A stretch of 64,000 nt of DNA from Vicinamibacteria bacterium (GCA_965115855.1 OZ220470.1:1854318-1918317); one strand, 5' to 3'. Numbered from the stretch's first letter, positions 1,071 to 52,811 are shown. The notes: generated from the sequence alone by a model not told the origin. Program-made: numbers and translations.

Positions 1071-1456
1071 CGCCCGGATTCTACGGCGGAAAGGGCGTCT
1101 CCCGAACCCGCCCGATCGGCGACTACGAAGTGCGGTCGCCCGGATCCGCCCGCGGCGGCGACGTCTCCCCGTGGACCGCCCCGGAGGGCATCACCAGCGG
1201 GGCACGGATCCTCCACATCCGTGCGCTCCCCATCGCCCGGAACACAACACCGGGGCCACGCACGGCGGGATGATCCGGTGGCCGGAGGTCCTGGTGAGGA
1301 GGAGCGGGCCTTGTCGGGCGATTCGAGCCTGTTCCGATTTCGGACCTGCGGCGGGCCGGGGGGCTCCCGCGACGAGCCGGGATCGCTCCCTGGGCCCCGG
1401 GAACTCCCCGGGACCCATGCCGTATCGGAACCTCCCGCCCGGTCCGACCAGCGCTC

Positions 1457-1975
1457 TCAGCGCCGGAAGGAGGATTCCACGACCGGCTCGACCACCTCCC
1501 GGGCATCCCGCATGCTCGTGACGATGCCTTCGATTCGGGCGAGAGTCTCCCCGAACTCATCCATGCGCGTATCGATGCGACGTTCGAAGTCGTCGATCCG
1601 CCGTTCCAGTCCATCCAACCGCATCTCGACGGCTTCGAGGCGATGTTCGACGGCGTCGATCCGCCGTTCGACGGCGTCCAGCCGCATCTCGACGGCTTCG
1701 AGGCGGTGTTCGACAGCTTCGAGGCGGTGTTCGACGGCGTCGATCCGCCGTTCGAGAACATCGATCCGTTGTGCAAGGCGGTGTTCAACAGCTTCGATTT
1801 GCGCCCGTATATCCCGAAGGTCATCCGCGACGACCTGTTGGACCGTCCAGTGCGTCAGGGCCCCGAGAGCAGCCAGGATCCCAATGACAGCACCGACCGG
1901 AACGGCCCAATTGCGCACGGCAGCAATCACCCGGCCCGAAATCGACTCCACGCCGACCATGGCGTCCACACCCAT
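1457..1975 (-). CDS. Single-TM anchored coiled-coil repeat protein, cassette 1 (172 aa)
   Basis: GGAGG SD 7 nt before ATG; TM WAVPVGAVIGILAALGALTHW; 9 heptads + 1 hendecad in the variable stalk. Confidence 0.85.
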   Translation of the reverse strand: MGVDAMVGVESISGRVIAAVRNWAVPVGAVIGILAALGALTHWTVQQVVADDLRDIRAQIEAVEHRLAQRIDVLERRIDAVEHRLEAVEHRLEAVEMRLDAVERRIDAVEHRLEAVEMRLDGLERRIDDFERRIDTRMDEFGETLARIEGIVTSMRDAREVVEPVVESSFRR

Positions 1976-2086
1976 GACATGCCCTCCAAGGGAGGAAAGG
2001 AAGCAGAGGTCATTGTCGGGTGGGACTACCCATTCCCGTTACGGACCAGCACGATGCGCGAGGCACCATCGATCCCGCAGTGGCGA

Positions 2087-2095
2087 AGCATAACA
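2087..2095 (-). promoter_or_regulatory. Extended -10 element TGTTATGCT, one per cassette
   Basis: Matches TGnTAnnnT. Copies at 2087-2095, 2794-2802, 3480-3488, 4192-4200, 4844-4852, 5535-5543 (TGTTATGGT) and 6167-6175, each about 110-120 nt upstream of the ATG. Confidence 0.55.
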
Positions 2096-2164
2096 CCCCC
2101 GTGATCGCGGCCGCCGCCCTCTCCAGTCAGCCAACGCATGGCGCATGCACGGGGCACGCACAGC

Positions 2165-2214
2165 GAATCCTCTGCCAGCCCGACGAAGCGCTGTCAGCGA
2201 CCGGCAGAGGATTC
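2165..2214 (-). other. 12-bp inverted repeat straddling each cassette stop codon
   Basis: gaatcct(c/t)gcc-type arm ... ggc(a/g)gaggattc at 2165-2214, 2872-2933, 3551-3612, 4269-4318, 4915-4976 and 5613-5674. No U-tract. Confidence 0.6.
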
Positions 2215-2682
2215 CACGACTGGATCGACCACCTTCCGGGCGTCCCGCATGCTCGTGACCATGCCTTCGATTCGGGCGAGAGTCTCCCCGAACTCGTCCA
2301 TGCGTGTATCGATGCGACGTTCAAAGTCGTCGATGCGCGTATCGATGTGGCGTTCGAAGTCGTCGAATCGGCGTTCGAAGTCGTCCAGCCGCATCTCGAC
2401 GGCTTCGAGGCGGTGTTCGACAGCTTCGAGGCGCTGTTCGACGGCGTCGATCCGCCGTTCGAGAACATCGATCCGTTGTGCAAGGCGGTGTTCAACAGCT
2501 TCGATTTGCGCCCGTATATCCCGAAGGTCATCCGCGACGACCTGTTGGACCGTCCAGTGCGTCAGGGCCCCGAGAGCAGCCAGGATCCCAATGACAGCAC
2601 CGACCGGAACGGCCCAGTTGCGCACGGCGGCAGTCACCCGACCCGAAATCGACTCCACGCCGACCATGGCGTCCACACCCAT
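2194..2682 (-). CDS. Single-TM coiled-coil repeat protein, cassette 2 (162 aa)
   Basis: Paralog of cassette 1; stalk of 6 heptads + 2 hendecads. Confidence 0.85.
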   Translation of the reverse strand: MGVDAMVGVESISGRVTAAVRNWAVPVGAVIGILAALGALTHWTVQQVVADDLRDIRAQIEAVEHRLAQRIDVLERRIDAVEQRLEAVEHRLEAVEMRLDDFERRFDDFERHIDTRIDDFERRIDTRMDEFGETLARIEGMVTSMRDARKVVDPVVESSAGR

Positions 2683-2912
2683 GACATGCCCTCCAAGGGA
2701 GGAAAGGAAGCAGAGGTCATTGTCGGGTGGGACTACCCATTCCCGTTACGGACCAGCATGATGCGCGAGGCACCATCGATCCCGCAGCGACGAAGCATAA
2801 CACCCTCGTGATCGCGGCCGCCGCCCTCTCCCGTCAGCCAGCGCATGGCGCATGCACGGGGCACGCACAGCGAATCCTCCGCCAGCCCGACAAAGCGCTG
2901 CCCACGGCGCTG

Positions 2913-3368
2913 TCAGCGACCGGCAGAGGATTCCACGACCGGCTCGACCACCTGCCGGGCGTCCCGCATGCTCGTGACCATGCCTTCGATTCGGGCGAGA
3001 GTCTCCCCGAACTCGTCCATGCGCGTATCGATGCGACGTTCGAAGTCGTCGATCCGCGTATCGATGTGGCGTTCGAAGTCGTCGAATCGGCGTTCGAAGT
3101 CTTCCAGCCGCATCTCGACGGCTTCGAGGCGGTGTTCGAGGGCATCAAGACGATGTTCGACGGCATCAAGACGGTGTTCGACAGCGTCGATTTGCGCCCG
3201 TATGTCCCGAAGGTCATCCGCGACGACCTGTTGGACCGTCCAGTGCGTCAGGGCCCCGAGAGCAGCCAGGATCCCAATGACAGCACCGACCGGAACGGCC
3301 CAGTTGCGCACGGCGGCAGTCACCCGACCCGAAATCGACTCCACGCCGACCATGGCGTCAACACCCAT
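2913..3368 (-). CDS. Single-TM coiled-coil repeat protein, cassette 3 (151 aa)
   Basis: Paralog; 6 heptads + 1 hendecad. Confidence 0.85.
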   Translation of the reverse strand: MGVDAMVGVESISGRVTAAVRNWAVPVGAVIGILAALGALTHWTVQQVVADDLRDIRAQIDAVEHRLDAVEHRLDALEHRLEAVEMRLEDFERRFDDFERHIDTRIDDFERRIDTRMDEFGETLARIEGMVTSMRDARQVVEPVVESSAGR

Positions 3369-3591
3369 GACATGCCCTCCAAGGGAGGAAGGGAAGCAGA
3401 GGTCATTGTCGGGTGGGACTACCCATTCCCGTTACGGACCAGCACGATGCGCGAGGCACCATCGATCCCGCAGCGACGAAGCATAACACCCTCGTGATCG
3501 TGGCCGCCGCCCTCTCCAGTCAGCCAGCGCATGCACGGGGCACGCACAGCGAATCCTCCGCCAGCCCGACGAAGCGCTGCCCACGGCGCTG

Positions 3592-4080
3592 TCAACGCCC
3601 GGCGGAGGATTCCACGACCGGCTCGGCCACCTGCCGGGCGTCCCGCATGCTCGTGACGATGCCTTCAATTCGGGCGAGAGTCTCCCCGAAGTCGTCCATG
3701 CGCGTGTCGATGCGGCGTTCGAAGTCGTCGATCCGCCGTTCCAGTCCATCCAGCCGCATCTCAACGGCTTCGAGGCGATGTTCGACAGCTTCGATCCGCT
3801 GTTCGACGGCGTCGATCCGCCGTTCGAGGCGATGTTCGACGGCTTCAATTCGCCGTTCGAGACTGTGCTCGACATCGTCGATTCGCCGTTCGACGATTTC
3901 GATTTGCGCCCGTATATCCCGAAGGTCGTCCGCGACGACTTGTTGGACCGTCCAGTGCGTCAGGGCCCCGAGAGCAGCCAGGATCCCAATGACAGCACCG
4001 ACCGGAACGGCCCAGTTGCGCACGGCGGCAATCACCCGGCCCGAAATCGACTCCACGCCGACCATGGCGTCCACACCCAT
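3592..4080 (-). CDS. Single-TM coiled-coil repeat protein, cassette 4 (162 aa)
   Basis: Paralog; 6 heptads + 2 hendecads, different module identities from cassette 2. Confidence 0.85.
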   Translation of the reverse strand: MGVDAMVGVESISGRVIAAVRNWAVPVGAVIGILAALGALTHWTVQQVVADDLRDIRAQIEIVERRIDDVEHSLERRIEAVEHRLERRIDAVEQRIEAVEHRLEAVEMRLDGLERRIDDFERRIDTRMDDFGETLARIEGIVTSMRDARQVAEPVVESSAGR

Positions 4081-4297
4081 GACATGCCCTCCAAGGGAGG
4101 AAAGGAAGCAGAGGTCATTGTCGGGTGGGACTACCCATTCCCGTTACGGACTAGCACGATGCGCGAGGCACCATCGATCCCGCAGTGGCGAAGCATAACA
4201 CCCCCGTGATCGCGGCCGCCGCCCTCTCCAGTCAGCCAACGCATGGCGCATGCACGGGCACGCACAGCGAATCCTCTGCCAGCCCGACGAAGCGCTG

Positions 4298-4732
4298 TCA
4301 GCGACCGGCAGAGGATTCCACGACCGGCTCGACCACCTGCCGGGCGTCCCGCATGCTCGTGACCATGCCTTCGATTCGGGCGAGAGTCTCCCCGAACTCG
4401 TCCATGCGTGTATCGATGCGGCGTTCGAAGTCGTCGATGCGCCGTTCCAGTCCATCCAGCCGCATCTCGACGGCTTCGAGGCGATGTTCGACAGCTTCAA
4501 TCCGCCGTTCGAGGACATCGATCCGTTGTGCAAGGCGGTGTTCAACGGCATCGATTTGCGCCCGTATATCCCGAAGGTCATCCGCGACGACCTGTTGGAC
4601 CGTCCAGTGCGTCAGGGCCCCGAGAGCAGCCAGGATCCCAATGACAGCACCGACCGGAACGGCCCAGTTGCGCACGGCGGCAATCACCCGACCCGAAATC
4701 GACTCCACACCGACCATGGCGTCCACACCCAT
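4298..4732 (-). CDS. Single-TM coiled-coil repeat protein, cassette 5 (144 aa)
   Basis: Paralog; 5 heptads + 1 hendecad. Confidence 0.85.
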   Translation of the reverse strand: MGVDAMVGVESISGRVIAAVRNWAVPVGAVIGILAALGALTHWTVQQVVADDLRDIRAQIDAVEHRLAQRIDVLERRIEAVEHRLEAVEMRLDGLERRIDDFERRIDTRMDEFGETLARIEGMVTSMRDARQVVEPVVESSAGR

Positions 4733-4955
4733 GACATGCCCTCCAAGGAAGGAAAGGAAGCAGAGGTCATTGTCGGGTGGGACTACCCATTCCCGTTACG
4801 GACCAGCACGATGCGCGAGGCACCATCGATCCCGTAGTGACGAAGCATAACACCCTCGTGATCGTGGCCGCCGCCCTCTCCAGTCAGCCAGCGCATGCAC
4901 GGGGCACGCACAGCGAATCCTCCGCCAGCCCGACAAAGCGCTGCCCACGGCGCTG

Positions 4956-5423
4956 TCAGCGACCGGCAGAGGATTCCACGACCGGCTCGACCACCTGCCG
5001 GGCGTCCCGCATGCTCGTGACCATGCCTTCGATTCGGGCGAGAGTCTCCCCGAACTCGTCCATGCGCGTATCGATGCGACGTTCGAAGTCGTCGATCCGC
5101 CGTTCCAGTCCATCCAGCCGCATCTCAACGGCTTCGAGGCGGTGTTCGACAGCTTCAATCCGCCGTTCGAGGCGATGTTCGACGGATTCAATCCGCCGTT
5201 CGAGAACATCGATCCGTTGTGCAAGGCGGTGTTCAACGGCGTCGATCCGCGCCCGTATATCCCGAAGGTCGTCCGCGACGACTTGTTGGACCGTCCAGTG
5301 CGTCAGGGCCCCGAGAGCAGCCAGGATCCCAATGACAGCACCGACCGGAACGGCCCAGTTGCGCACGGCGGCAATCACCCGGCCCGAAATCGACTCCACA
5401 CCGACCATGGTGCCAACACCCAT
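4956..5423 (-). CDS. Single-TM coiled-coil repeat protein, cassette 6 (155 aa)
   Basis: Paralog; 5 heptads + 2 hendecads. Confidence 0.85.
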   Translation of the reverse strand: MGVGTMVGVESISGRVIAAVRNWAVPVGAVIGILAALGALTHWTVQQVVADDLRDIRARIDAVEHRLAQRIDVLERRIESVEHRLERRIEAVEHRLEAVEMRLDGLERRIDDFERRIDTRMDEFGETLARIEGMVTSMRDARQVVEPVVESSAGR

Positions 5424-5653
5424 GACATGCCCTCCAAGGGAGGAAGGGAAGCAGAGGTCATTGTCGGGTGGGACTACCCATTCCCGTTACGGACCAGCAC
5501 GATGCGCGAGGCACCATCGATCCCGCAGGGGCGAACCATAACAACCCCGTGATCGCGGCCGTAGCCCTCTCCAGTCAGCCCGTGCATGGCGCATGCACGG
5601 GGCACGCACAGCGAATCCTCCGCCAGCCCGACGAAGCGCTGCCCACGGCGCTG

Positions 5654-6055
5654 TCAACGCCCGGCGGAGGATTCCACGACCGGCTCGGCCACCTGCCGGG
5701 CGTCCCGCATGCTCGTGACGATGCCTTCAATTCGGGCGAGAGTCTCCCCGAAGTCGTCCATGCGCGTGTCGATGCGGCGTTCGAAGTCGTCGATCCGCCG
5801 TTCCAGTCCATCCAGCCGCATCTCGACGGCTTCGAGGCGGTGTTCGAGGGCATCAAGACGGTGTTCGACGGCGTCGATCCGCGCCCGTATATCCCGAAGG
5901 TCGTCCGCGACGACCTGTTGGACCGTCCAGTGCGTCAGGGCCCCGAGAGCAGCCAGGATCCCAATGACAGCACCGACCGGAACGGCCCAGTTGCGCACGG
6001 CGGCAGTCACCCGACCCGAAATCGACTCCACACCGACCATGGCGTCCACACCCAT
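5654..6055 (-). CDS. Single-TM coiled-coil repeat protein, cassette 7 (133 aa)
   Basis: Shortest paralog; 5 heptads. Confidence 0.85.
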   Translation of the reverse strand: MGVDAMVGVESISGRVTAAVRNWAVPVGAVIGILAALGALTHWTVQQVVADDLRDIRARIDAVEHRLDALEHRLEAVEMRLDGLERRIDDFERRIDTRMDDFGETLARIEGIVTSMRDARQVAEPVVESSAGR

Positions 6056-6291
6056 GACATGCCCTCCAAGGAAGGAAAGGAAGCAGAGGTCATTGTCGGG
6101 TGGGACTACCCATTCCCGTTACGGACCAGCACGATGCGCGAGGCACCATCGATCCCGCAGTGGGCAAGCATAACACCCCCCGGTGGGGTCGGGATTCCGG
6201 CCCCGTTCCCGCGCGCGGCATGCAGCCCGCCAGTCCACCGATGAAATCGGCATTCGGGCCAGGCGCCGGCCCCATGTGTTTCCATACCCGC

Positions 6292-7437
6292 ATGACCTGC
6301 CTCCGATCCCCCCTGCTGCCCGGCCTGCTCGCTGCCACGCTCCTCCACTGCGGCGGTTCCGAACCCGCTCCCGACGCGGACGACCCGATCGACCGTTTCG
6401 ATCGGGCGGTGGCGGCATTTCCCCGGGTGGACCTGGCCCACCTGCCGACCGCGCTCGACGAGATGCCGGCGCTCGCCGCCGAGCTGGGCGGGCCGCGACT
6501 CTTCGTGAAACGCGAGGATCTGACCGGTCTGGCGTTCGGCGGGAACAAGGCACGGAAGCTGGAATTCATCCTTGCCGACGCCGTGGAAAAGGAGAGCGAC
6601 TCGGTCCTTACCTGGGCCGGGGTCCAGTCCAACTGGGCACGGATGACCGCCGCCGGCGCCCGGAACCTGGGGTTGCAGCCGATCCTGGTGCTGCAGCGGG
6701 CCGAGCACCAGACAGTCAACCCGGCGGACGGCAACCTGCTGCTCGACCGCATCCTGGATGCGGACGTCCGCCTCCTCGAACCGGGTGACGACCGGGAGGC
6801 CGCGGTGGACCGGATCGCCGAAGCGGAGATTGCCGCCGGGCGCAAGCCCTATGTGGTGGCCGTCGGCGGCTCGCGGACCGGACATTCGATGGATCGCCCG
6901 CTCGGGGCAGTGGCCTACGCGCAGGCGTTCCGCGAGCTGATCGAACAGGCGCGGCAGCTCGGGATCCGGCCCACCCACATTGTCCACGCATCCGGCTCGG
7001 GCAGCACCCAGGCCGGATTCGTGGTGGGTGCGCGGGCACTCGCTCCCGAAGTGCGGGTGATCGGAATCTCCACCGGCGGGACCAAGGAAGCCAGCGAAGC
7101 CAACGTTCTTGCCATCGCCCGCGGCACGGCGGAGGCGATGGAGCTGGATATCGCAATCGGGCCGGACGACGTCGTGGTGATGGACGACTGGGTGGGTGAG
7201 GGATACGGCATCCTGAACGCCAGCATCGTGAGCGCCATCGCGCAGGTCGCGCGGACCGAGGGGCTGCTGCTGGACCCGGTCTACACCGGGAAAGCCATGG
7301 CGGGCCTGCTGGATCTGATCCAAGGCGGCGATCTCGGAAGTGACGAGACCGTGGTCTTCATCCACACCGGCGGCACGCCGGCGCTCTTCCCGTACCGCGA
7401 GGGATTGCTCGACGGACTGGCCGAATCGGGATCCTGA
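6292..7437 (+). CDS. dcyD: D-cysteine desulfhydrase/ACC-deaminase family PLP enzyme with signal-like N-terminal extension
   Basis: KREDLTGLAFGGNKARKLEF (PLP Lys), QSNW, SGSGSTQAG, LDPVYTGK, HTGG. Start placed at ATG 6292 because the ORF-track start at 6100 lies inside the array. Confidence 0.85.
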   Translation: MTCLRSPLLPGLLAATLLHCGGSEPAPDADDPIDRFDRAVAAFPRVDLAHLPTALDEMPALAAELGGPRLFVKREDLTGLAFGGNKARKLEFILADAVEKESDSVLTWAGVQSNWARMTAAGARNLGLQPILVLQRAEHQTVNPADGNLLLDRILDADVRLLEPGDDREAAVDRIAEAEIAAGRKPYVVAVGGSRTGHSMDRPLGAVAYAQAFRELIEQARQLGIRPTHIVHASGSGSTQAGFVVGARALAPEVRVIGISTGGTKEASEANVLAIARGTAEAMELDIAIGPDDVVVMDDWVGEGYGILNASIVSAIAQVARTEGLLLDPVYTGKAMAGLLDLIQGGDLGSDETVVFIHTGGTPALFPYREGLLDGLAESGS

Positions 7438-7723: not shown

Positions 7724-8809
7724 ATGCCCAGTGCCGATAACACCGTCCCCCCGGTGACCCCCGCCACCCTGGACCGCGCCATTGCCGGTTTCCCGCGGCG
7801 GGACTTCGCCCTGCTGCCCACTCCCCTGGAGGAGTTGCCCCGCCTCTCCCGCGCCCTCGGCGGGCCCCGGATCCTCGCGAAGCGCGATGACATGACCGGA
7901 CACGCGCTCGGCGGCAACAAGGCGCGCAAGCTCAGCTACATCCTCGCCGACGCCGAGTCCAGGGGCGCCGACACCATCGTGACCTGGGCCGCCGTCCAGT
8001 CCAACTGGGTGCGCATGACCGCGGCCGGCGCCCGCCGGCTCGGCATGCGGCCGGTGGCCGTCCTGCATCCGCGGATCGTCCAGGCCTCGGATCCGGCCGA
8101 CGGAAACCTGCTGCTCGACCGCATCCTCGGCGCGGACGTCCGGATCATCGACCCGGAAGGCGACTGCGTGGCGGAGGCCGGACAGGTGGTGGAGGAGATC
8201 CGGGCGAAGGGCGGCAAGCCCTACGTCGTGCCCGTTGGCGGATCGGGTGTCTCCGGCTCGATGGAAACCCCGCTCGGCGCGATTTCCTATGTTGCGGCGT
8301 TCCGGGAACTGCTGGCACAAACGGAAGAGCGCAGCGGGCGGCCCACCCACGTGGTGCATGCGTCCGGCTCGGGGAGCACCCAGGCCGGCCTCGTCGTCGG
8401 AGCGCGCGCCCTCGCCCCGGACGTGCGCATCCTCGGCATCGGCACCGGGCGGAGGAAGGTGGAAGCGGAAGCCAACATCCTCAAAATCGCCCGGCAGGCA
8501 GCAGCCGCGCTCGAACTGGACCTGGAAGTCCGGCCGGAGCACGTGGAGGTGAACGAGGACTACATCGGGCGCGGCTACGGCCACCTCAACCGCTCGGTGG
8601 TGGAGGCCATTGCCACCATGGCGCGCACCGAAGGCATCTTCCTCGACCCGGTGTATTCCGGCAAGGGGATGTCCGGCCTCATCGATCTCATCCGCCGGGG
8701 CGCGTTCCGGCCTGACGACACGGTCGTCTTCGTCCACACCGGCGGCACTCCGGCGCTCTTCCCCTACAAGGAGGAGATCCTGCGGGACCTCCCGCCGGAC
8801 CGCTTCTGA
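7724..8809 (+). CDS. dcyD: Second D-cysteine desulfhydrase family PLP enzyme (no signal)
   Basis: KRDDMTGHALGGNKARKL, QSNW, SGSGSTQAG, LDPVYSGK, HTGG. Confidence 0.88.
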   Translation: MPSADNTVPPVTPATLDRAIAGFPRRDFALLPTPLEELPRLSRALGGPRILAKRDDMTGHALGGNKARKLSYILADAESRGADTIVTWAAVQSNWVRMTAAGARRLGMRPVAVLHPRIVQASDPADGNLLLDRILGADVRIIDPEGDCVAEAGQVVEEIRAKGGKPYVVPVGGSGVSGSMETPLGAISYVAAFRELLAQTEERSGRPTHVVHASGSGSTQAGLVVGARALAPDVRILGIGTGRRKVEAEANILKIARQAAAALELDLEVRPEHVEVNEDYIGRGYGHLNRSVVEAIATMARTEGIFLDPVYSGKGMSGLIDLIRRGAFRPDDTVVFVHTGGTPALFPYKEEILRDLPPDRF

Positions 8810-8888: not shown

Positions 8889-10250
8889 ATGAAATCCATC
8901 GCTCTCGAGGATTTCCGCTGCTTCCGCAAGAAGCAGAACGCGCGCCTTGCGCCGGTCACGCTGCTGGTGGGCGACAACAGCACCGGCAAGACGTCCTTCA
9001 TGGCCATGATCCGGGCGCTCGGTACGATGCTTCACGAAAACCGGATGCCCGACTTCAAGGAGGATCCCTACGACCTCGGCAGTTTCGAGGACATCGCACA
9101 TCACCGCGGTCGTCGGGGGAGCCGCGCCTCGTCGTTTTCGGCGTGGCTGGATCTGGACCTGCCGCCGCCTGACGAAGAACCGCAGACCAACATCGAGAGA
9201 ACGACGGGAACCGGAATGCCGAGCCGTTTCTCCATGAGGTTCGGACCGGGTGGAGCCGCTCCGGTTCCGAGTTCGTGGCGCTTGGAGCATGATTACTTCC
9301 GGATGGAAATGAACTGGGAGGAACACGAGATTGAACTTGGCCTTTCCGGACATTCCTGGAAGGTCGACTTCAGGCAACGCGCGCGCCTGATCGATTCCGT
9401 TCAGGACACAATGGGACCGCTTCGTTCCATCGGACTCGTACTCGATAACGCAAAGGACGAAGACATTGTGTCTGTTGCCGGCTCGGATTCCGTTCCCAAG
9501 AGTCGTCTGGCAATCCATGTCCGCTCCCTGTTCCATTCCTGCACCCGCTTGCGGGCGCCCCATGCAAGCGCACCCGTGCGTTCCCGGCCCCGCCGCACCT
9601 ACGACCCGGCTCGTCCCGATCACGACGCGGAGGGTCGATCCATTCCGGTGTACTTGTTGGAAACCCACTCGAAACAAGGCACGAACTGGAGCTCCCTGAA
9701 GGAGAAACTGGAAACCTTCGGCCGCGGCTCGGGTCTGTTTGATGAAATCGAGGTCAAGCGGATGGGAGCGAAGGGCAGCGATCCCTTCCAGTTGCACCTC
9801 CGAAGATCCCGGAAGCGAGGCGAGCGACGGAAGGGCCCCCGGCGCAATCTGATCGATGTCGGTTACGGCGTCAGTCAGGTGCTGCCGATCCTGGTCGAGA
9901 TGCTCCGCGATGATGCGCCGTCGGGTTTTCTCCTGCAACAACCCGAGGTGCATCTCCACCCGAGCGCACAGGCCGCGCTGGGAAGCCTGTTCTGCGAGGT
10001 GGCGGGATCGGGTCGGCAACTCATCATCGAGACACACAGCGATCACCTGGTGGATCGCGTGCGGATGGATGTGCGGGACGGGAAAGGCAAGCTGACCCCG
10101 GAGGATGTGTCAATCCTGTTTTTCGAACAGATCGAACTGGATGTCAAGATCCATTCCATTCGCCTTGATAACGAGGGGAATGTGCTGGATGCACCCGATA
10201 GCTACCGGAAATTCTTCATGCAGGAAATAAATCGTTCTCTCGGATTCTGA
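8889..10250 (+). CDS. ABC-type (AAA_15/AAA_21-like) ATPase with DUF3696-like C-terminus
   Basis: Walker A GDNSTGKT, signature DVGYGVSQVLP, Walker B/D-loop LLQQPEVHLHP, H-loop ETHSDH. Confidence 0.8.
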   Translation: MKSIALEDFRCFRKKQNARLAPVTLLVGDNSTGKTSFMAMIRALGTMLHENRMPDFKEDPYDLGSFEDIAHHRGRRGSRASSFSAWLDLDLPPPDEEPQTNIERTTGTGMPSRFSMRFGPGGAAPVPSSWRLEHDYFRMEMNWEEHEIELGLSGHSWKVDFRQRARLIDSVQDTMGPLRSIGLVLDNAKDEDIVSVAGSDSVPKSRLAIHVRSLFHSCTRLRAPHASAPVRSRPRRTYDPARPDHDAEGRSIPVYLLETHSKQGTNWSSLKEKLETFGRGSGLFDEIEVKRMGAKGSDPFQLHLRRSRKRGERRKGPRRNLIDVGYGVSQVLPILVEMLRDDAPSGFLLQQPEVHLHPSAQAALGSLFCEVAGSGRQLIIETHSDHLVDRVRMDVRDGKGKLTPEDVSILFFEQIELDVKIHSIRLDNEGNVLDAPDSYRKFFMQEINRSLGF

Positions 10251-42143: not shown

Positions 42144-44363
42144 TCAGTAGACGCGGTCGCGATCCCCGCCGAGACCGTAGGCGAAGCTGGTGACGCCGCC
42201 CAGCGTGAGTCCGAACTGGAAGAGATTCTCCTGACGCGAGCCCATGTTGTAGCGCGTCCACTCGACGCTGACGCCGCAGCACTGGAAGAGGAGATCAAGA
42301 CGGGTCCGCAGATTGGACATGCGCCGCTCGGTGATGTCGTAGTTGACCGAGATGCTGGTTCGGAGCACCTCGGAGGGGTAGAAATCGGTCCCGGCGCGGA
42401 AGTAACTGCTGGCGTCCACCTCGGCGTCCGGTTCGTCGGAGACCCGGCGCGCCCGACGCGACCAGCTCGCGTCGAAGTTGGTGTTCGATTCGCGACTGCC
42501 GAATCGCAGACCGGTACGAATGGAGGTGAACAACCGCTCGTCGGGGTCCCACTCCATCGTCCAGTCACCGTTCAGAGAGGGGTCGGGAGTAAACCGGAAA
42601 TCGGAACGGATGGGGGATTTCCGAACTTCGCCCTCCTCGAAGGAGGACGAGCTGTAGCTGCTGTTGTATCCGCCGGCTTCGGGGTCGAAGTACCAGGTCT
42701 GATGGATGCGCCAGGTGATCACGTCGGTCGCGCTGGATTCCTCCACGCCGTCGCGGTACCGCTTGGCGAGCAGCCGGTTCACCAACCCGAGACGGATCTC
42801 GTTGGTGGTCGGGGAGCTGTCATATCGGTCGAACCGGTTCACCTGATCGAAGTTGTCGTCGCTGACCCGGTAGGTCCAGATTCCCTCGGGTTCGATCAGG
42901 TGCTTGAACCGGGAGGCGTAGAAGTTGTTCGGGGTGTCGAAGATGCGCTCGATCTTGGGACCGCCCATCTGGACATCCACGCCGTAGTAACGGCGGCTGA
43001 GCTGGCGCTCGGAGTCAAAATCGCTCGTCTCCGGATCGATGGAACCGGTGTAGCGGGCGTAACCGGTCTCGACGGCCGCGGACAGGTCCAGGAACGGGAC
43101 TTCCGGCAAACCCAGCTCCAGCGACGGCCCCACGAAGATGCGGCGCCATTCCTGGAATTCGTCGCGGCGCGAGCGTCCTACCTGCAAGTAGTCCACTTCG
43201 TATCCGAGCTGCACATGACGTCCGATCAGCCCGAGGCTGCGTCGCTTGACGTTGATCTGCGGCAACACCTGGCGGATGCTGTTGCGCGAGGTGTACTGGG
43301 TGTCCTTGCGGTCCACCCGGAATCGCAGCGAATGGCGAAGGAGGGAGGCCCGCACATCGGCCTTGAGTCGCTTGTAACGCCGGGCCGAATTGGAGAACGA
43401 GCTCTGGAAGCGTCGGCTGAAATCGAAGCTGGAGAACTGGTCCCCGCGGGCGCTCACGCGGATGCGCCCGGGAAATCGTTGGTTCACCCGGTAATGGAGC
43501 GAGTACTCCCTTGCCTCGGTCGTCTTGTCATTGATGACGAAGAGATCACCCTCGGCCGACGAGCCGGCATCGCCCCGGTATCGGTATTCCGTACCGATAC
43601 CGGTTCCGGACACCGTGAAGTGGTCGAGACTCACCGTGAGATCCATGGAGCGATTGATCGCCCAGAAGAAGGCCTGGCTCACCAGATGGCCGCGCTTGTC
43701 CGAATTGGCGTAGCGGGGCATCAGGAACCCGGTCTGGCGACCGGTCTCCTCGACGATCGGATAGTAGAGCGCCGGCATCCAGGCCACCGGAATCCCCTTG
43801 ACGCGGAACGCCACGTTCCGCATCCAGATGCTCTTCCGCGGGCGCACCACCGCACGGCTGGCGGTGAAATTCCACCGGGGCACCGGCTGCGCGCAGGTGG
43901 TGAAGGCGCCCCGCTCGAGAACGTAGTTGCCGTCGTCGTCCTCCTCCACCGACTCGGCCACGAAGTAGAAATCCTGTCCGAGCAGGCCCCGCGCGTTCTC
44001 GAATCGCACCCGGGTGCCACCGAGGCTGGCCATGAGCTTCTCCGCCACCACCTTCTCGTTCCCCCGCTCGAAGACCACATTGCCGGTGGCCTCGATCCGC
44101 ATCTCGTCCTCCCACACCTCGATGCGGTCGGCCTGAACCCGGAGCCCGCCGAACCCGAGCTGGGCGTAGCCTTCGAGGACCAGATGGCTGCCGTTTCGCT
44201 CCGTCCGCTCGGCACGGGTAACGAGCGTGCCGGCGGCGGTGGCCGCGTGGGGCCACGCCACGGGCGGCTTCGACTGCTGCCCCCGACCCGAATATTGCCC
44301 GGACGCGACCCCGGCAACCACCAGGGCGGGAACCAGGAGCACCGCGACCCGCGCGCCGAACAC
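42144..44363 (-). CDS. lptD: LPS-assembly outer membrane protein
   Basis: OstA-like N-domain (ADRIE..ATGNV), FTTC.QP.P.W, GFLMP, FFWAINRS, beta-barrel, C-terminal FQCC; start GTG 44363 inferred. Confidence 0.9.
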   Translation of the reverse strand: MFGARVAVLLVPALVVAGVASGQYSGRGQQSKPPVAWPHAATAAGTLVTRAERTERNGSHLVLEGYAQLGFGGLRVQADRIEVWEDEMRIEATGNVVFERGNEKVVAEKLMASLGGTRVRFENARGLLGQDFYFVAESVEEDDDGNYVLERGAFTTCAQPVPRWNFTASRAVVRPRKSIWMRNVAFRVKGIPVAWMPALYYPIVEETGRQTGFLMPRYANSDKRGHLVSQAFFWAINRSMDLTVSLDHFTVSGTGIGTEYRYRGDAGSSAEGDLFVINDKTTEAREYSLHYRVNQRFPGRIRVSARGDQFSSFDFSRRFQSSFSNSARRYKRLKADVRASLLRHSLRFRVDRKDTQYTSRNSIRQVLPQINVKRRSLGLIGRHVQLGYEVDYLQVGRSRRDEFQEWRRIFVGPSLELGLPEVPFLDLSAAVETGYARYTGSIDPETSDFDSERQLSRRYYGVDVQMGGPKIERIFDTPNNFYASRFKHLIEPEGIWTYRVSDDNFDQVNRFDRYDSSPTTNEIRLGLVNRLLAKRYRDGVEESSATDVITWRIHQTWYFDPEAGGYNSSYSSSSFEEGEVRKSPIRSDFRFTPDPSLNGDWTMEWDPDERLFTSIRTGLRFGSRESNTNFDASWSRRARRVSDEPDAEVDASSYFRAGTDFYPSEVLRTSISVNYDITERRMSNLRTRLDLLFQCCGVSVEWTRYNMGSRQENLFQFGLTLGGVTSFAYGLGGDRDRVY

Positions 44364-44376
44364 CGGAGCCCGTGAG

Positions 44377-44982
44377 CTATCGCGCCGGTTCGTAATACGG
44401 ATTTTTCCCGGCGGCGTGGTCGGTGGTATCCAGGATGGCGCCAATTTCAGGAACGGAACGGCGCAAGGCCCGTTCCACTCCCTGCCGCAGGGTGGCCGTG
44501 GCCATCCCGCAACCCTGGCAACCGCCGCCCATCCGGAGGAAGACCTGGTTCTTCTCCACCCCAACGAGGTCGATCCAGCCCCCGTGGGACGCCACCGCCG
44601 GATTGACTTCGTCCTTCAGTACGTGTTGCACCCGGTCCCGGATCTCGTCGGGACCGGGGAGCCCGTCAAGGACCCCGGGATCCACCGGCGGAGCATCGTC
44701 TTGCAGCACCTCCCGGATGCGTCGGCCGATCTCGCGGCCCAGCGGCATCCAGTTGTGCTGTTCCTTGGCATGGATGGTGATCACCTCGTCCTGGACGAGG
44801 ACTCCCTCCACTCCCGGAAGCTGGAGGAGGGCGTGCGCCACCGGCGAACCGGCGGCGCGTTCCCCGGGCTCGAACCAGACGGATCCCCCGGGGAACACCG
44901 GTCGATCCAGCACGAATCGGCAGGTGGTGTTGTCGCGGGGTTCGGCCCGGATCAGGATACGGTCCGCCGCCGGCTCGCTCAT
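44377..44982 (-). CDS. NifU/Nfu Fe-S carrier with N-terminal scaffold domain
   Basis: NPAVASHGG, GGGCQGC; start ATG 44982. Confidence 0.9.
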   Translation of the reverse strand: MSEPAADRILIRAEPRDNTTCRFVLDRPVFPGGSVWFEPGERAAGSPVAHALLQLPGVEGVLVQDEVITIHAKEQHNWMPLGREIGRRIREVLQDDAPPVDPGVLDGLPGPDEIRDRVQHVLKDEVNPAVASHGGWIDLVGVEKNQVFLRMGGGCQGCGMATATLRQGVERALRRSVPEIGAILDTTDHAAGKNPYYEPAR

Positions 44983-49913: not shown

Positions 49914-52811
49914 ATGAGACGAGCTTTTTTCGCATTCCTGTGCGTTTTGCTTGCCGGGCCGGCGCTCGGCCAGCAGCAGTACGGACGACTCCAGGGGTCG
50001 GCGCTTGACGCCCAGGGGCTTGCCCTGCCGGGAGTGACCGTCACCCTCGCGGGTGACGCGATCATCGGATCGCGAACGGCTGCCACCGACGTGGACGGGT
50101 CGTACCGGTTCCAGGCACTGCCTCCCGGCGACTACACCCTGACGTTCGAACTCAGCGGTTTCCAGACCGTGGTCTTCGAGGAGATCCGCGTGGTCACCGG
50201 CGCCACCTTCGAGGTGGACGCCAACATGCAGATCGCAACGGTGGCCGAAACGATCACGGTGACCGGCGAATCACCGGTCGTGGACGTGAAGTCCACGGGG
50301 GTTGCCGCCACGTTCGATGACACCCAGCTCGACGAAGTTCCGACCGCAACCGACATGTGGGCGGTGCTCCACCAGAGCCCCGGCGTGCGGGTGAAGGGCG
50401 TCGACGTCGGAGGTTCCCACAAGAGCCAGCAGTCCACCTACGAGACGTTCGGCGTCCGCAGCCAGAACCGGGTTCTCTACGAGGGGGTAAACACCACCGA
50501 GGGAACCGGCTCCGCGGGCGGCTATTACGACTACTACGCGATGGAGGAAATGCAAGTTGCGGCGCAGGGAGCGGACGTCGAGATGTCCACTCCGGGAGCG
50601 CAGATCCAGACGACGGTAAAGAGCGGCGGCAATGAGTTCTCCGGCCTCGAGAGCGGCGCCTGGAACCCGGCCGACCTGATCGCCGAGAACATCGACAGCG
50701 ATCTCGAAGCCCGCGGCGGCACTCCCTCGCCGGTGGTCCAGTTCTACGAGTTCCACGTTGACCTCGGCGGCCCGATTGTCCGCGACAAGGCCTGGTTCTA
50801 CGGCGCGTACAACAACTTTTACATCGACACGGTGATCTCCGGCCAGGATCCGAACATCGCCACCGATATCGGCGACTTCGACATCTTCACGGCCAAGGTG
50901 AATTACCAGATCACCGAGCGCGACCAGTTCATCGGGTTCTCGACCTGGTCCTGGAAGCGGAAACCAAACCGGTCGCTCTCGGTACAGATCCCGGCGGAGT
51001 CGGTACTCGCCCAGGACTACTGGATCTGGCTGCACAAGGCCGAGTGGCAACGGGTCTGGAGCGACCGCCTCTACAGCAACGTCATGGTGGGGCACATGGG
51101 AACCACCTGGCCGATGGTGCCGAAGGCGGACCCGATCGACGGCAACGAGCCGCGGATCAATCTCGCCACCAACGTGCGTTCGGGAGCCGGCTGGCAGCCG
51201 TTCACCCGGAACCGGTGGAAGCCGCAGAGCACCGGCCAGTTCAACTACTACGTGCCGCTCGGCGGCAGCAGCCACGACTTCAAGTTCGGCTGGGACTGGC
51301 AGATCGACTCCGAGATGTCCGGGTGGAACACGAACTCCGGCGCCATCCGGTACCGGGACGACCCGTCGCAGGGCCGGCCCCGCAACGTGCATCAGGTGGA
51401 TGTGTTCGGGGTTCCCAACCTGGTGGACAACCGGAATCAGCACGTGGACTTCTTCGCCCAGGACGTCTGGACGGTCAACGACCGCCTGACGCTGATGGCC
51501 GGTTTCCGCGTGGGCAGCCAGATACTGGCCTACCTCGAATCCGACAACTCGCCGGGAAGCGCGTGCCAGGACGCCTTGGCCTGTCAATTCGAATTGCCGC
51601 AGAATCAGACCCAGATACTGCAGCAGGTCTTCGGAACCGGGGGCGTGACCCCGGGAGATACGGTGTTCACGCACTGGAACGTCGCCCCCCGGGTCGGGCT
51701 CACCTACGACCTCACCGGCGAGGGTTCCACGGTCTTCAAGACCTACTTCGGGCGGTACTACTCGAACGTCGGCACCGGACTCGGCACGGCGAATCCCGGC
51801 GGACAGCCCGACGCCCGCTACGAATTCCTCGACCAGAACGAGAACGGGGTACTGGACAATTTTTCCGAGCTCGGCCAGCAGCTCTCCTTCACGGCGGGCG
51901 CCGGATCAGGAAATACCACTCCGATCGATCCGAATTGGACCCTTCCGTATGCCGACGAGGTCAGCGCCGCGTTGGAACACGAGCTCACCACCGACCTCGG
52001 AATGCGTGCCTCCTATGTGTACAAGCGGATGCGGAACACCTGGAGCCGCTACGACCAGGTGGACGCGCTGAACCGGAACACGCCGATCACGATCCCCACG
52101 TGCGATGGCTGCCCTGCCGGGTACGAACGGTCGTTCAACCTTCTCCTCTATCCCGAGGAGATGGTGGGCAAGAACGACAACCTGACCACCAACCATCCCG
52201 CCGGCGAGAGCGACATGGATTTTCACACTGTCTCGCTCGGGATCAACAAGCGGTTCCGGAACAACCTCTTCTACAACGTCTATTTCGACTACCAGTGGCG
52301 TTCGGAGCCTCGCAGCCCTCAAAGTTCCGCAACAGCCTGGGATGCGACCAGTCCGTTGAGTTCGGATCCCACCGCCCAGGGTTGGTTCATCAACTATGAC
52401 CAGGACATTCCGACGGTCCAGGAAACATCGACGTACCAGTTGAAGGCGGCGGCCCGCTACGTACTCCCACACGAGATCGGCCTCGCCGGCACGTACCGCT
52501 ACATCAGTGGCTGGAACTACGCGCCCATCCATCGGAACACCGTCTATGACGGTCGGGTTGAGGTGTATTCCTGGCTCGGGTTGATGAACGAGAATCGTTC
52601 GGACAACGTCACGATGATCGACTTGCGGGCCGACAAATCGTTCGCACTCAGCGACAGAATGAACTTCCAACTGATCGTGGACGTCTTCAACGCCTTGAAT
52701 GCAAACACCATCGTGAACTTCCAGCTGATCGACTCGGTGGATCCCTATCAACGGGTGGTCGAATACCTGAAGGGGCGAACCATCGGGTTTTCCGGGAGGT
52801 TGACCTTCTGA
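49914..52811 (+). CDS. TonB-dependent receptor with carboxypeptidase-regulatory-like N-domain (Oar-like)
   Basis: Signal peptide, G.L.G...D.QG..LPGV, ETITVTGESP, plug and barrel, C-terminal F; GGAGG SD. Confidence 0.93.
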   Translation: MRRAFFAFLCVLLAGPALGQQQYGRLQGSALDAQGLALPGVTVTLAGDAIIGSRTAATDVDGSYRFQALPPGDYTLTFELSGFQTVVFEEIRVVTGATFEVDANMQIATVAETITVTGESPVVDVKSTGVAATFDDTQLDEVPTATDMWAVLHQSPGVRVKGVDVGGSHKSQQSTYETFGVRSQNRVLYEGVNTTEGTGSAGGYYDYYAMEEMQVAAQGADVEMSTPGAQIQTTVKSGGNEFSGLESGAWNPADLIAENIDSDLEARGGTPSPVVQFYEFHVDLGGPIVRDKAWFYGAYNNFYIDTVISGQDPNIATDIGDFDIFTAKVNYQITERDQFIGFSTWSWKRKPNRSLSVQIPAESVLAQDYWIWLHKAEWQRVWSDRLYSNVMVGHMGTTWPMVPKADPIDGNEPRINLATNVRSGAGWQPFTRNRWKPQSTGQFNYYVPLGGSSHDFKFGWDWQIDSEMSGWNTNSGAIRYRDDPSQGRPRNVHQVDVFGVPNLVDNRNQHVDFFAQDVWTVNDRLTLMAGFRVGSQILAYLESDNSPGSACQDALACQFELPQNQTQILQQVFGTGGVTPGDTVFTHWNVAPRVGLTYDLTGEGSTVFKTYFGRYYSNVGTGLGTANPGGQPDARYEFLDQNENGVLDNFSELGQQLSFTAGAGSGNTTPIDPNWTLPYADEVSAALEHELTTDLGMRASYVYKRMRNTWSRYDQVDALNRNTPITIPTCDGCPAGYERSFNLLLYPEEMVGKNDNLTTNHPAGESDMDFHTVSLGINKRFRNNLFYNVYFDYQWRSEPRSPQSSATAWDATSPLSSDPTAQGWFINYDQDIPTVQETSTYQLKAAARYVLPHEIGLAGTYRYISGWNYAPIHRNTVYDGRVEVYSWLGLMNENRSDNVTMIDLRADKSFALSDRMNFQLIVDVFNALNANTIVNFQLIDSVDPYQRVVEYLKGRTIGFSGRLTF

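Follow-up and report, generated by a model that had tools for sequence, protein, structure and literature searches.

A stretch of 64,000 nucleotides from a Vicinamibacteria bacterium (GCA_965115855.1 OZ220470.1:1854318-1918317; hereafter the window) carries on its minus strand, between positions 1457 and 6180, an array in which a repeat unit of about 690-740 bp occurs seven times head to tail. Every unit encodes a small protein in which a stalk built of 7-residue (heptad) and 11-residue (hendecad) modules is enclosed by a near-invariant N-terminal part with a transmembrane (TM) helix and a near-invariant C-terminal tip. We judge it reasonably probable that the locus is a lineage-specific array of headless trimeric rods, whose lengths are quantised by recombination between the DNA repeats that encode the stalk. 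The protein chemistry itself is textbook, i.e., a coiled coil with the Kammerer trimer motif and stutters (11-residue insertions into the heptad pattern). The novelty lies in seven tandem, individually led, headless stalk genes of six different lengths.

Each repeat unit consists of a leader of 125 nt, an intact open reading frame (ORF) and a 3' spacer of about 95-107 nt, the latter being absent after g1, the last gene. The homology stops approximately 125 nt upstream of g7, the first transcribed gene of the array, and shortly past the stop codon of g1. Exactly seven copies were found in the 64-kb window by tblastn. The seven genes, as delineated by ORF and module tokenisation (for g1 and g7 also by AlphaFold2 (AF2) models), are the following:

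1457-1975, minus strand: g1, 172 amino acids (aa), 8 heptads and 2 hendecads, stalk DNA 1559-1792
2194-2682, minus strand: g2, 162 aa, 5 heptads and 3 hendecads, stalk DNA 2296-2499
2913-3368, minus strand: g3, 151 aa, 5 heptads and 2 hendecads, stalk DNA 3015-3185
3592-4080, minus strand: g4, 162 aa, 5 heptads and 3 hendecads, stalk DNA 3694-3897
4298-4732, minus strand: g5, 144 aa, 4 heptads and 2 hendecads, stalk DNA 4400-4549
4956-5423, minus strand: g6, 155 aa, 4 heptads and 3 hendecads, stalk DNA 5058-5240
5654-6055, minus strand: g7, 133 aa (the shortest), 4 heptads and 1 hendecad, stalk DNA 5756-5872

We regard the seven ORFs as real genes, apparently under purifying selection, because each has a GGAGG 7 nt ahead of its ATG, the pairwise ratio of non-synonymous to synonymous differences (pN/pS) is low (0.29 in the constant parts, 0.21 in the stalk), the variable codons of the constant regions are mostly synonymous (18 synonymous, 12 non-synonymous), and homologs of the same architecture are found in another genus.

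The first 61 residues are near-invariant across the paralogs and comprise a short helix, a Trp-Ala-Val-Pro kink and a hydrophobic stretch at residues 23-41 with a mean Kyte-Doolittle hydropathy of 1.98, representing a single TM helix. The last 33 residues are likewise near-invariant in all seven. What lies between them was tokenised both on the proteins and on their DNA (the module list of g6 was corrected by hand) and divides into 51 heptads and hendecads without any remainder. The heptads have the form x-h-E-x-R-h-(D/E) and the hendecads the form x-h-E-x-(R/H/S)-h-x-x-R-h-(D/E). All 51 modules have V, L or F at position 2 (d), Glu at position 3 (e) and L, I or F at position 6 (a), while Arg occupies position 5 (g) in 48 of them. 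The extra core position of the hendecads (position 10) is I or M in 16 out of 16 cases. Core residues are spaced by 3 or 4 only, with one extra 4 per hendecad.

A preliminary description of this stretch had proposed that all lengths equal 133+7a+11b. The module counts reproduce every one of these sums, and the length of 162 aa is indeed reached twice via different modules, since g4 contains IVERRID, DVEHSLERRIE and AVEHRLERRID, unlike g2. The modules named there are all present, with the correction that DFERRID is no free heptad but the start of a hendecad, DFERRIDTRMD, common to all seven copies. In agreement with the same description, the coding regions vary by whole modules only, and no indel breaks the frame or the register. 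The length arithmetic is weak evidence for quantisation, as sums of the form 7a+11b cover 36% of the integers from 1 to 39 and six fitting differences have a chance of about 0.002; the gapless tiling is the strong evidence.

The stalks are supported to be continuous coiled-coil-type helices. The AF2 monomer of g7 is one helix (residues 3-123, pLDDT, the predicted local distance difference test, >90 at residues 70-115) followed by a disordered tail, and that of g1 has a continuous helix from 27 to 171 (pLDDT at least 95 at residues 70-150). The helix is unbroken through the hendecads and stops about 10-12 residues short of the C-terminus, and there is no head domain. This bears out the earlier statement that heptads and hendecads keep the coiled-coil register, these being the two best-tolerated periodicities of a coiled coil (PMC4786415). 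On these models the term 'stalk' is partly a misnomer, as the rod would be the entire extramembrane protein. At 0.15 nm per residue, its approximately 75-115 residues correspond to a rod length of about 11.7 nm (g7) to 17.6 nm (g1).

The quantisation is reflected in the DNA. Repeated 8-mers and 10-mers in the stalk DNA are spaced by 21, 33, 42, 54, 63 or 66 nt only, and TRF reports periods of 21, 33, 42 and 63. All k-mer spacings are sums of 21s and 33s, and slippage or unequal exchange therefore yields changes of whole modules (7a+11b) only. Judged from their sequences, the paralogs clearly look like recombination mosaics. The C-terminal 44 codons are identical at the DNA level between g4 and g7 and between g3 and g6, whereas the N-terminal parts of these pairs differ at 7-10 sites (10 for g3/g6). 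The first modules of g2 match those of g1, g5 and g6, whereas its last modules (DFERRFD, DFERHIDTRID) match g3. The DNA of the hendecad AVEHRLERRID equals that of AVEHRLE plus AVERRID minus 9 nt, the loss lying between two TCGAA repeats; read this way, it would be a three-residue deletion, which is equivalent to a stutter. The 3' spacers (2101-2193, 2806-2912, 3492-3591, 4206-4297, 4856-4955, and 5549-5653) carry indels of 12, 7 and 1 nt, the first being a duplication (CAGCGCCGTGGG) directly after the stop codon and the second consisting of CATGCGN. Since these are not all multiples of three, such indels are tolerated outside the coding regions of the array, and their absence from the genes points to selection on the reading frame.

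All non-heptad modules are stutters of 11 residues, and not a single stammer (10 residues) is found. Stutters are easier to accommodate than stammers, which overwind the helices (PMC4786415, PMC5940361). Among 136 unrelated proteins with the same heptad, the motif spacings are 7 (884 times), 14 (94), 11 (38), 18 (26), 15 (23) and 10 (3), with 24 proteins having 11-residue modules (xVExRLxxRID) and two having a 10-residue spacing, in a survey that is biased because the retrieval profile already contained hendecads, a caveat that counts against our interpretation. The preference for stutters over stammers is a general rule and not a peculiarity of this locus. The proximate cause of the quantisation would then be mutational: unequal recombination, gene conversion and slippage would add, remove and shuffle whole modules between and within paralogs, purifying selection would subsequently preserve the frame and the module sequence, and the structural preference for stutters would account for a non-heptad module of 11 rather than 10 residues. 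The array is a clean natural case of coiled-coil DNA repeats steering mutation toward register-preserving changes, and a caution against reading selection from repeat-length patterns. Searches of public proteins and contigs gave no further alleles with which to look for register-breaking indels.

The known motif for parallel trimers is Arg(g)-h(a)-x-x-h(d)-Glu(e), with I, L, V or M at a and L, I or V at d (PMC3653964). Its strict form, R[ILVM]xx[LIV]E, occurs three to eight times per paralog, whereas shuffled versions of each stalk average 0.1-0.3, and the motif recurs in nearly every heptad. The occurrence of this motif had been claimed before and holds for the strict form; RIDDFE, one of the examples given, falls outside the published definition, as do RLDDFE and RFDDFE, all three having Phe at d. 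In addition, the core is rich in beta-branched residues (57% of the modules have Val at d, and 41% have Ile at a), and Arg at g and Glu at e are expected to attract each other in a parallel arrangement and to clash in an antiparallel one. A sequence-profile search of the PDB revealed no homolog, only weak matches, nearly all of them to trimeric coiled coils, namely reovirus sigma-1, HA2, CoilSer, and designed trimers. Given the strict motifs, the attraction between Arg g and Glu e, the beta-branched core and the trimeric PDB matches, a parallel homotrimer is our best estimate for the paralogs, one that we somewhat favor, and the helices would assemble as in-register rods.

Apart from the window proteins, P0005 and P0006 from Candidatus Marinacidobacterium (Acidobacteriota, Vicinamibacteria) are the sole full-length members of the family that were found, each encoded by a single-copy gene at a dispersed site. 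They share the architecture and 46-55% identity with the window proteins and contain the strict trimer motif six times each. As read from the sequences, P0005 (139 aa) has six heptads and one hendecad, and P0006 has six heptads and two hendecads. The most conserved segment between the genera is the tip, ...RMD(E/D)(F/M)(G/A)ETLARIEGxV..MRD, and there is no Cys in any of the seven paralogs nor in P0005 or P0006. The gene for P0005 lies 8 nt upstream of genes for a DsbD_TM (CcdA-like) protein, a cytochrome c and an AhpC/TSA-Redoxin (TlpA-like) protein (L001, 10001-12115), which together could form an operon for periplasmic redox or cytochrome maturation. That for P0006 is located between a MatE gene and a peptidase S9 gene. 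No synteny was found among the window and the two Marinacidobacterium loci.

No other protein combining the TM part, the stalk and the ETLARIEG tip was found in a profile search of 1.84 billion representatives or in searches of 5.8 billion clustered proteins. Contig scans, covering genomes, viruses and, in two of the scans, metagenomes, likewise added no family member. The xVExRLD heptad (with Arg g and Glu e) is common among small, mutually unrelated proteins of diverse origin (among P0007-P0153), some of which also have the 11-residue variant xVExRLxxRID (e.g., P0014, P0022, P0025, and P0045), but the N-terminal TM part and the ETLARIEG tip were found only in the window and Marinacidobacterium. 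Apart from Pfam DUF7310 (PF23991), a coiled-coil region without assigned function, no name seems to exist for this class of repeat. DUF7310 is the best Pfam match for six out of seven copies. With a cut-off of 40 bits, the scores against this family are 40.8 (g3), 37.9 (g1), 36.2 (g2), 30.4 (g7), 28.3 (g4), 27.1 (g5) and 26.0 (g6) and reflect the generic heptad only. Otherwise, scans of the paralogs against Pfam, NCBIfam and PHROGs gave no match above cut-off, only compositional coiled-coil matches. Some candidates were discarded. A Sulfurimonas histidine kinase (L003, 1550-2890) contains LKRIEGIVTSMRE, which is close to the family tip LARIEGIVTSMRD, but the resemblance spans only about 55 residues and is probably due to chance; the stretch follows the predicted phospho-acceptor His motif of the kinase. 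The match at L005 is a chance match in a spurious frame. An assignment of P0011 and P0048 to DUF1640 (MCUR1/CCDC90B-like) was not confirmed by Pfam and is not used here.

The side of the membrane on which the rods are located is suggested by the charges around the TM helix. In P0005, five Lys or Arg residues precede the helix, and the 15 positions that follow it contain none. The flanks just after the TM helix are acidic in all three lineages, and the extramembrane part is net acidic. The cell is diderm, since the window encodes LptD and outer-membrane barrels, and the genes just downstream of that for P0005 have products that act in the periplasm. A cytoplasmic N-terminus would therefore place the rods in the periplasm of a diderm Acidobacteriota cell, where they would serve as spacers or tethers that keep the conserved tip a defined distance away from the inner membrane. 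We tentatively propose an inner-membrane-anchored periplasmic rod with its tip 12-18 nm from the membrane, i.e., an inverted, longer functional analogue of Lpp, a placement with a substantial but less than even chance of being correct.

Several points weigh against periplasmic trimeric rods. Leu at a combined with a beta-branched d is a pattern associated with tetramers (PMC3653964). In the window paralogs the positive-inside signal is weak, with two Lys or Arg residues before the TM helix and one after it, and the N-terminus may be a cleavable signal peptide. The three loci have different gene neighbors, from which no common clue to the function emerges, and the spacer or tether role is pure conjecture. 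Moreover, the family occurs in two genomes only, so that evolutionary statements rest on very few lineages.

The first of these points fits an assembly of the proteins as dimers, tetramers or antiparallel bundles rather than parallel trimers; single amphipathic helices on the membrane surface are another form of this explanation, for which 11-residue repeats, being typical of lipid-surface helices, and a weak Pfam apolipoprotein match can be adduced. We consider these assemblies rather unlikely: the trimer motif stands in tandem three to eight times per protein, the closest solved sequences are trimers, Arg g and Glu e would repel their own kind in an antiparallel bundle, and a lipid-binding face would require a broader hydrophobic stripe than the two residues per heptad seen here between charged positions. 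Of a similarly low plausibility is the main alternative to the periplasmic role, namely a cytoplasmic helix (N-out, C-in) that acts as a membrane-anchored scaffold like YhcB, EzrA or the N-terminal region of RNase Y. The nearly balanced charges across the TM helix of the window paralogs speak for it, as do the very Arg-rich stalk and a near-threshold match to RNase_Y_N (29 vs. 32 bits). Against it stand the charge distribution of P0005, the net acidic extramembrane part and the apparent co-transcription of P0005 with genes of periplasmic action, and the Pfam matches are compositional and below their cut-offs. It appears very improbable that the genes are what is left of a phage module for lysis or the membrane (similar to XhlA, DUF2730 or i-spanins), amplified in the chromosome. 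The paralogs do have weak matches to phrog_12015, phrog_1009 and phrog_1193 (families of unknown function and one annotated as hemolysin), to XhlA (PF10779; 16-23.5 bits, below the cut-off of 34.7) and to DUF2730; however, all are under the curated cut-offs and concern the coiled coil only, none is to spanins, no phage genes are nearby, the neighbors are chromosomal housekeeping genes, and no relative was found in 2.9 million viral contigs.

The preliminary description had favored selection on trimers of graded length, possibly hetero-trimerising through the shared N- and C-terminal ends. Six lengths among seven copies persist although the flanks have been homogenised to 90-100% identity, the stalk is under purifying selection, and the membrane-proximal register is common within {g1,g2,g5}, {g3,g7} and {g4,g6}, all of which would suit a graded series. 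Nevertheless, we find this explanation unlikely. Selection on graded lengths is not required, since the recombination of 21- and 33-nt repeats is expected to produce the same diversity, and the lack of register-breaking indels is no evidence for such selection. In the direction of transcription the lengths are 133, 155, 144, 162, 151, 162 and 172, which shows no ordering by length and includes two equal copies, and the related genus has just two dispersed single copies. The length differences among the seven copies need not be adaptive. As to hetero-trimers via both shared ends, chains in register at the membrane would have their conserved C-terminal ends 11-39 residues apart and cannot align them as well. 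Furthermore, the hendecad positions differ among the paralogs: the core overlap is 0.73-0.87 within the three groups just mentioned and 0.28-0.65 between them, so that hendecads clash between groups. Such hetero-trimers are thus unlikely, and the geometry of the module pattern would favor homotypic or within-group assembly.

Trimeric rods produced by repeat recombination, as preferred here, can be compared with a number of known systems. The short parallel trimers with the Kammerer motif (coronin-1, ccbeta, engineered GCN4, and cortexillin) have the identical motif with Ile or Leu at a and Val or Leu at d (PMC3653964), but the rods of the array are 75-115 residues long, are interrupted by hendecads and have the motif in almost every heptad, and their trimeric state is deduced from sequence. 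LINE-1 ORF1p is also a trimer with R-h-x-x-h-E motifs, whose N-terminal heptads evolve fast while the register is kept (PMC5940361); it differs in having a stammer instead of stutters, in being a eukaryotic RNA-binding protein and in lacking a tandem gene array.

The stalks of trimeric autotransporters (YadA, NadA, BadA, and EibD, the last being among the weak PDB matches) mix heptads, hendecads and longer periodicities. Their length varies through the number of repeats. The array proteins, in contrast, have no C-terminal beta-barrel anchor (no such Pfam match), no head and no neck, and are anchored by an N-terminal TM helix, presumably in the inner membrane.

Lpp of E. coli is likewise a small headless periplasmic coiled-coil rod, which is why a functional analogy is suggested. 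It differs in being an outer-membrane lipoprotein that is linked to peptidoglycan via a C-terminal Lys, while the array proteins have no Cys or lipobox, carry an N-terminal TM helix and reach two to three times its length. They are unrelated to Lpp in sequence and do not belong to its family. Lpp variants with 14 or 21 additional residues have been engineered, and the length in heptads reportedly sets the envelope distance (PMC5736177, PMC8824477). If the rods are indeed periplasmic trimers, the array would represent a natural Lpp-lengthening experiment with six ruler lengths in one cell, and a simple system for studying how envelope distances are set in a little-studied phylum.

Each gene of the array is preceded by its own conserved leader. 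The 125 nt before the ATG are 94-100% identical among the seven copies, and the sequence further upstream of g7 is unrelated to the other copies. The leaders were delineated by sequence identity, supplemented by folds for g1, g2 and g6 and by RNAalifold and minimum free energy (MFE) folds for g7:

6056-6180, minus strand: leader of g7, 125 nt, with two hairpins upstream of a 3' hairpin and with TGTTATGCT, possibly an extended -10
5424-5548, minus strand: leader of g6
4733-4855, minus strand: leader of g5
4081-4205, minus strand: leader of g4
3369-3491, minus strand: leader of g3
2683-2805, minus strand: leader of g2
1976-2100, minus strand: leader of g1
L001 9888-10003 and L004 9887-10003: leaders of the Marinacidobacterium homologs, with the same elements

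The elements found in all lineages are TATGCTTC (in the window in the form TGTTATGCT, a candidate for an extended -10 element), GTCCGTA(A/G)CGGG...TCCC, a pyrimidine tract and the GGAGG. The hairpin sequence GTCCGTARCGGG...TCCC precedes every copy and both Marinacidobacterium homologs. In RNAalifold and MFE predictions, all three lineages have two hairpins in the upstream part of the leader, followed by a 3' hairpin in which the GGAGG ribosome-binding site and the AUG are paired. The 3' hairpin has a predicted energy of -11 to -15 kcal/mol at 37 °C, with two to three compensatory changes among the three lineages. The whole-leader z-scores against shuffles are -4.6 and -2.4 for the Marinacidobacterium leaders and -0.8 for that of g7. 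No Rfam 15 family matched region 1200-6500 up to E = 1, nor any part of the window at the gathering score. Based on the predicted folds, the leader looks like an element of translational control (a thermometer, a riboswitch platform, or the target of a protein or small RNA) and is a candidate for a new cis-regulatory RNA, three lineages being too few to prove the structure. A 21-codon upstream ORF at the conserved TATGCTT was rejected, as its peptide lengths and sequences differ by eye across the three lineages. Scans for consensus sigma-70 promoters and intrinsic terminators gave nothing above the expectation from shuffles.

A more far-reaching scheme joins leader and rods. The paralogs would form a kit of self-sorting, inner-membrane-anchored periplasmic trimeric rods with a reach of about 12-18 nm, in which the stutter positions force homotypic or within-group assembly, the rods probe or set envelope distances, and the leader RNA, by masking the ribosome-binding site and start codon, switches all copies on together. 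We regard this scheme as speculative and quite unlikely in its entirety.

The plus strand of the array contains long ORFs of about 255-263 aa (2020-2811, 2727-3497, 3413-4198, 4777-5541, and 5468-6244), which were rejected as antisense artefacts. Each begins MGLPIPVTDQHDARGTIDP inside a leader and traverses the adjacent gene. They were judged to be artefacts because their codon boundaries coincide with those of the real genes, their high G+C at third codon positions being the G+C of the first positions on the sense strand. The synonymous changes of the minus-strand frame land on the first codon positions of these ORFs. The G+C content of the array (window 2001-6000) is 0.636-0.643, compared to about 0.69 in the flanks, which we tentatively attribute to the codons of the Glu/Asp/Arg/Ile-rich repeats rather than to a foreign origin.

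The window is otherwise an ordinary core chromosome, encoding RuvABC, QueA, YebC, a Liv-type ABC transporter, MqnC/E-like radical SAM proteins, FtsH, LptD and SHMT. The LptD-like gene is located at 42144-44564 (minus strand), and two paralogous large outer-membrane proteins with a CarboxypepD_reg domain and an outer-membrane protein beta-barrel are encoded at 49914-52811 and 58104-61022 (both plus strand). The array is neighbored by a carboxyltransferase gene downstream and by two divergent genes for pyridoxal 5'-phosphate (PLP) enzymes upstream. The latter (6100-7437 and 7724-8809, both plus strand) are tandem PALP paralogs that read like 1-aminocyclopropane-1-carboxylate (ACC) deaminase or D-cysteine desulfhydrase. 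As listed, the ORF at 6100-7437 overlaps the leader of g7, and its long N-terminal extension includes a signal-like hydrophobic segment. The PLP enzyme genes are adjoined by a gene for an AAA_15/AAA_21 ATPase (8889-10250, plus strand), a domain pair that is common in defence and toxin-antitoxin systems.

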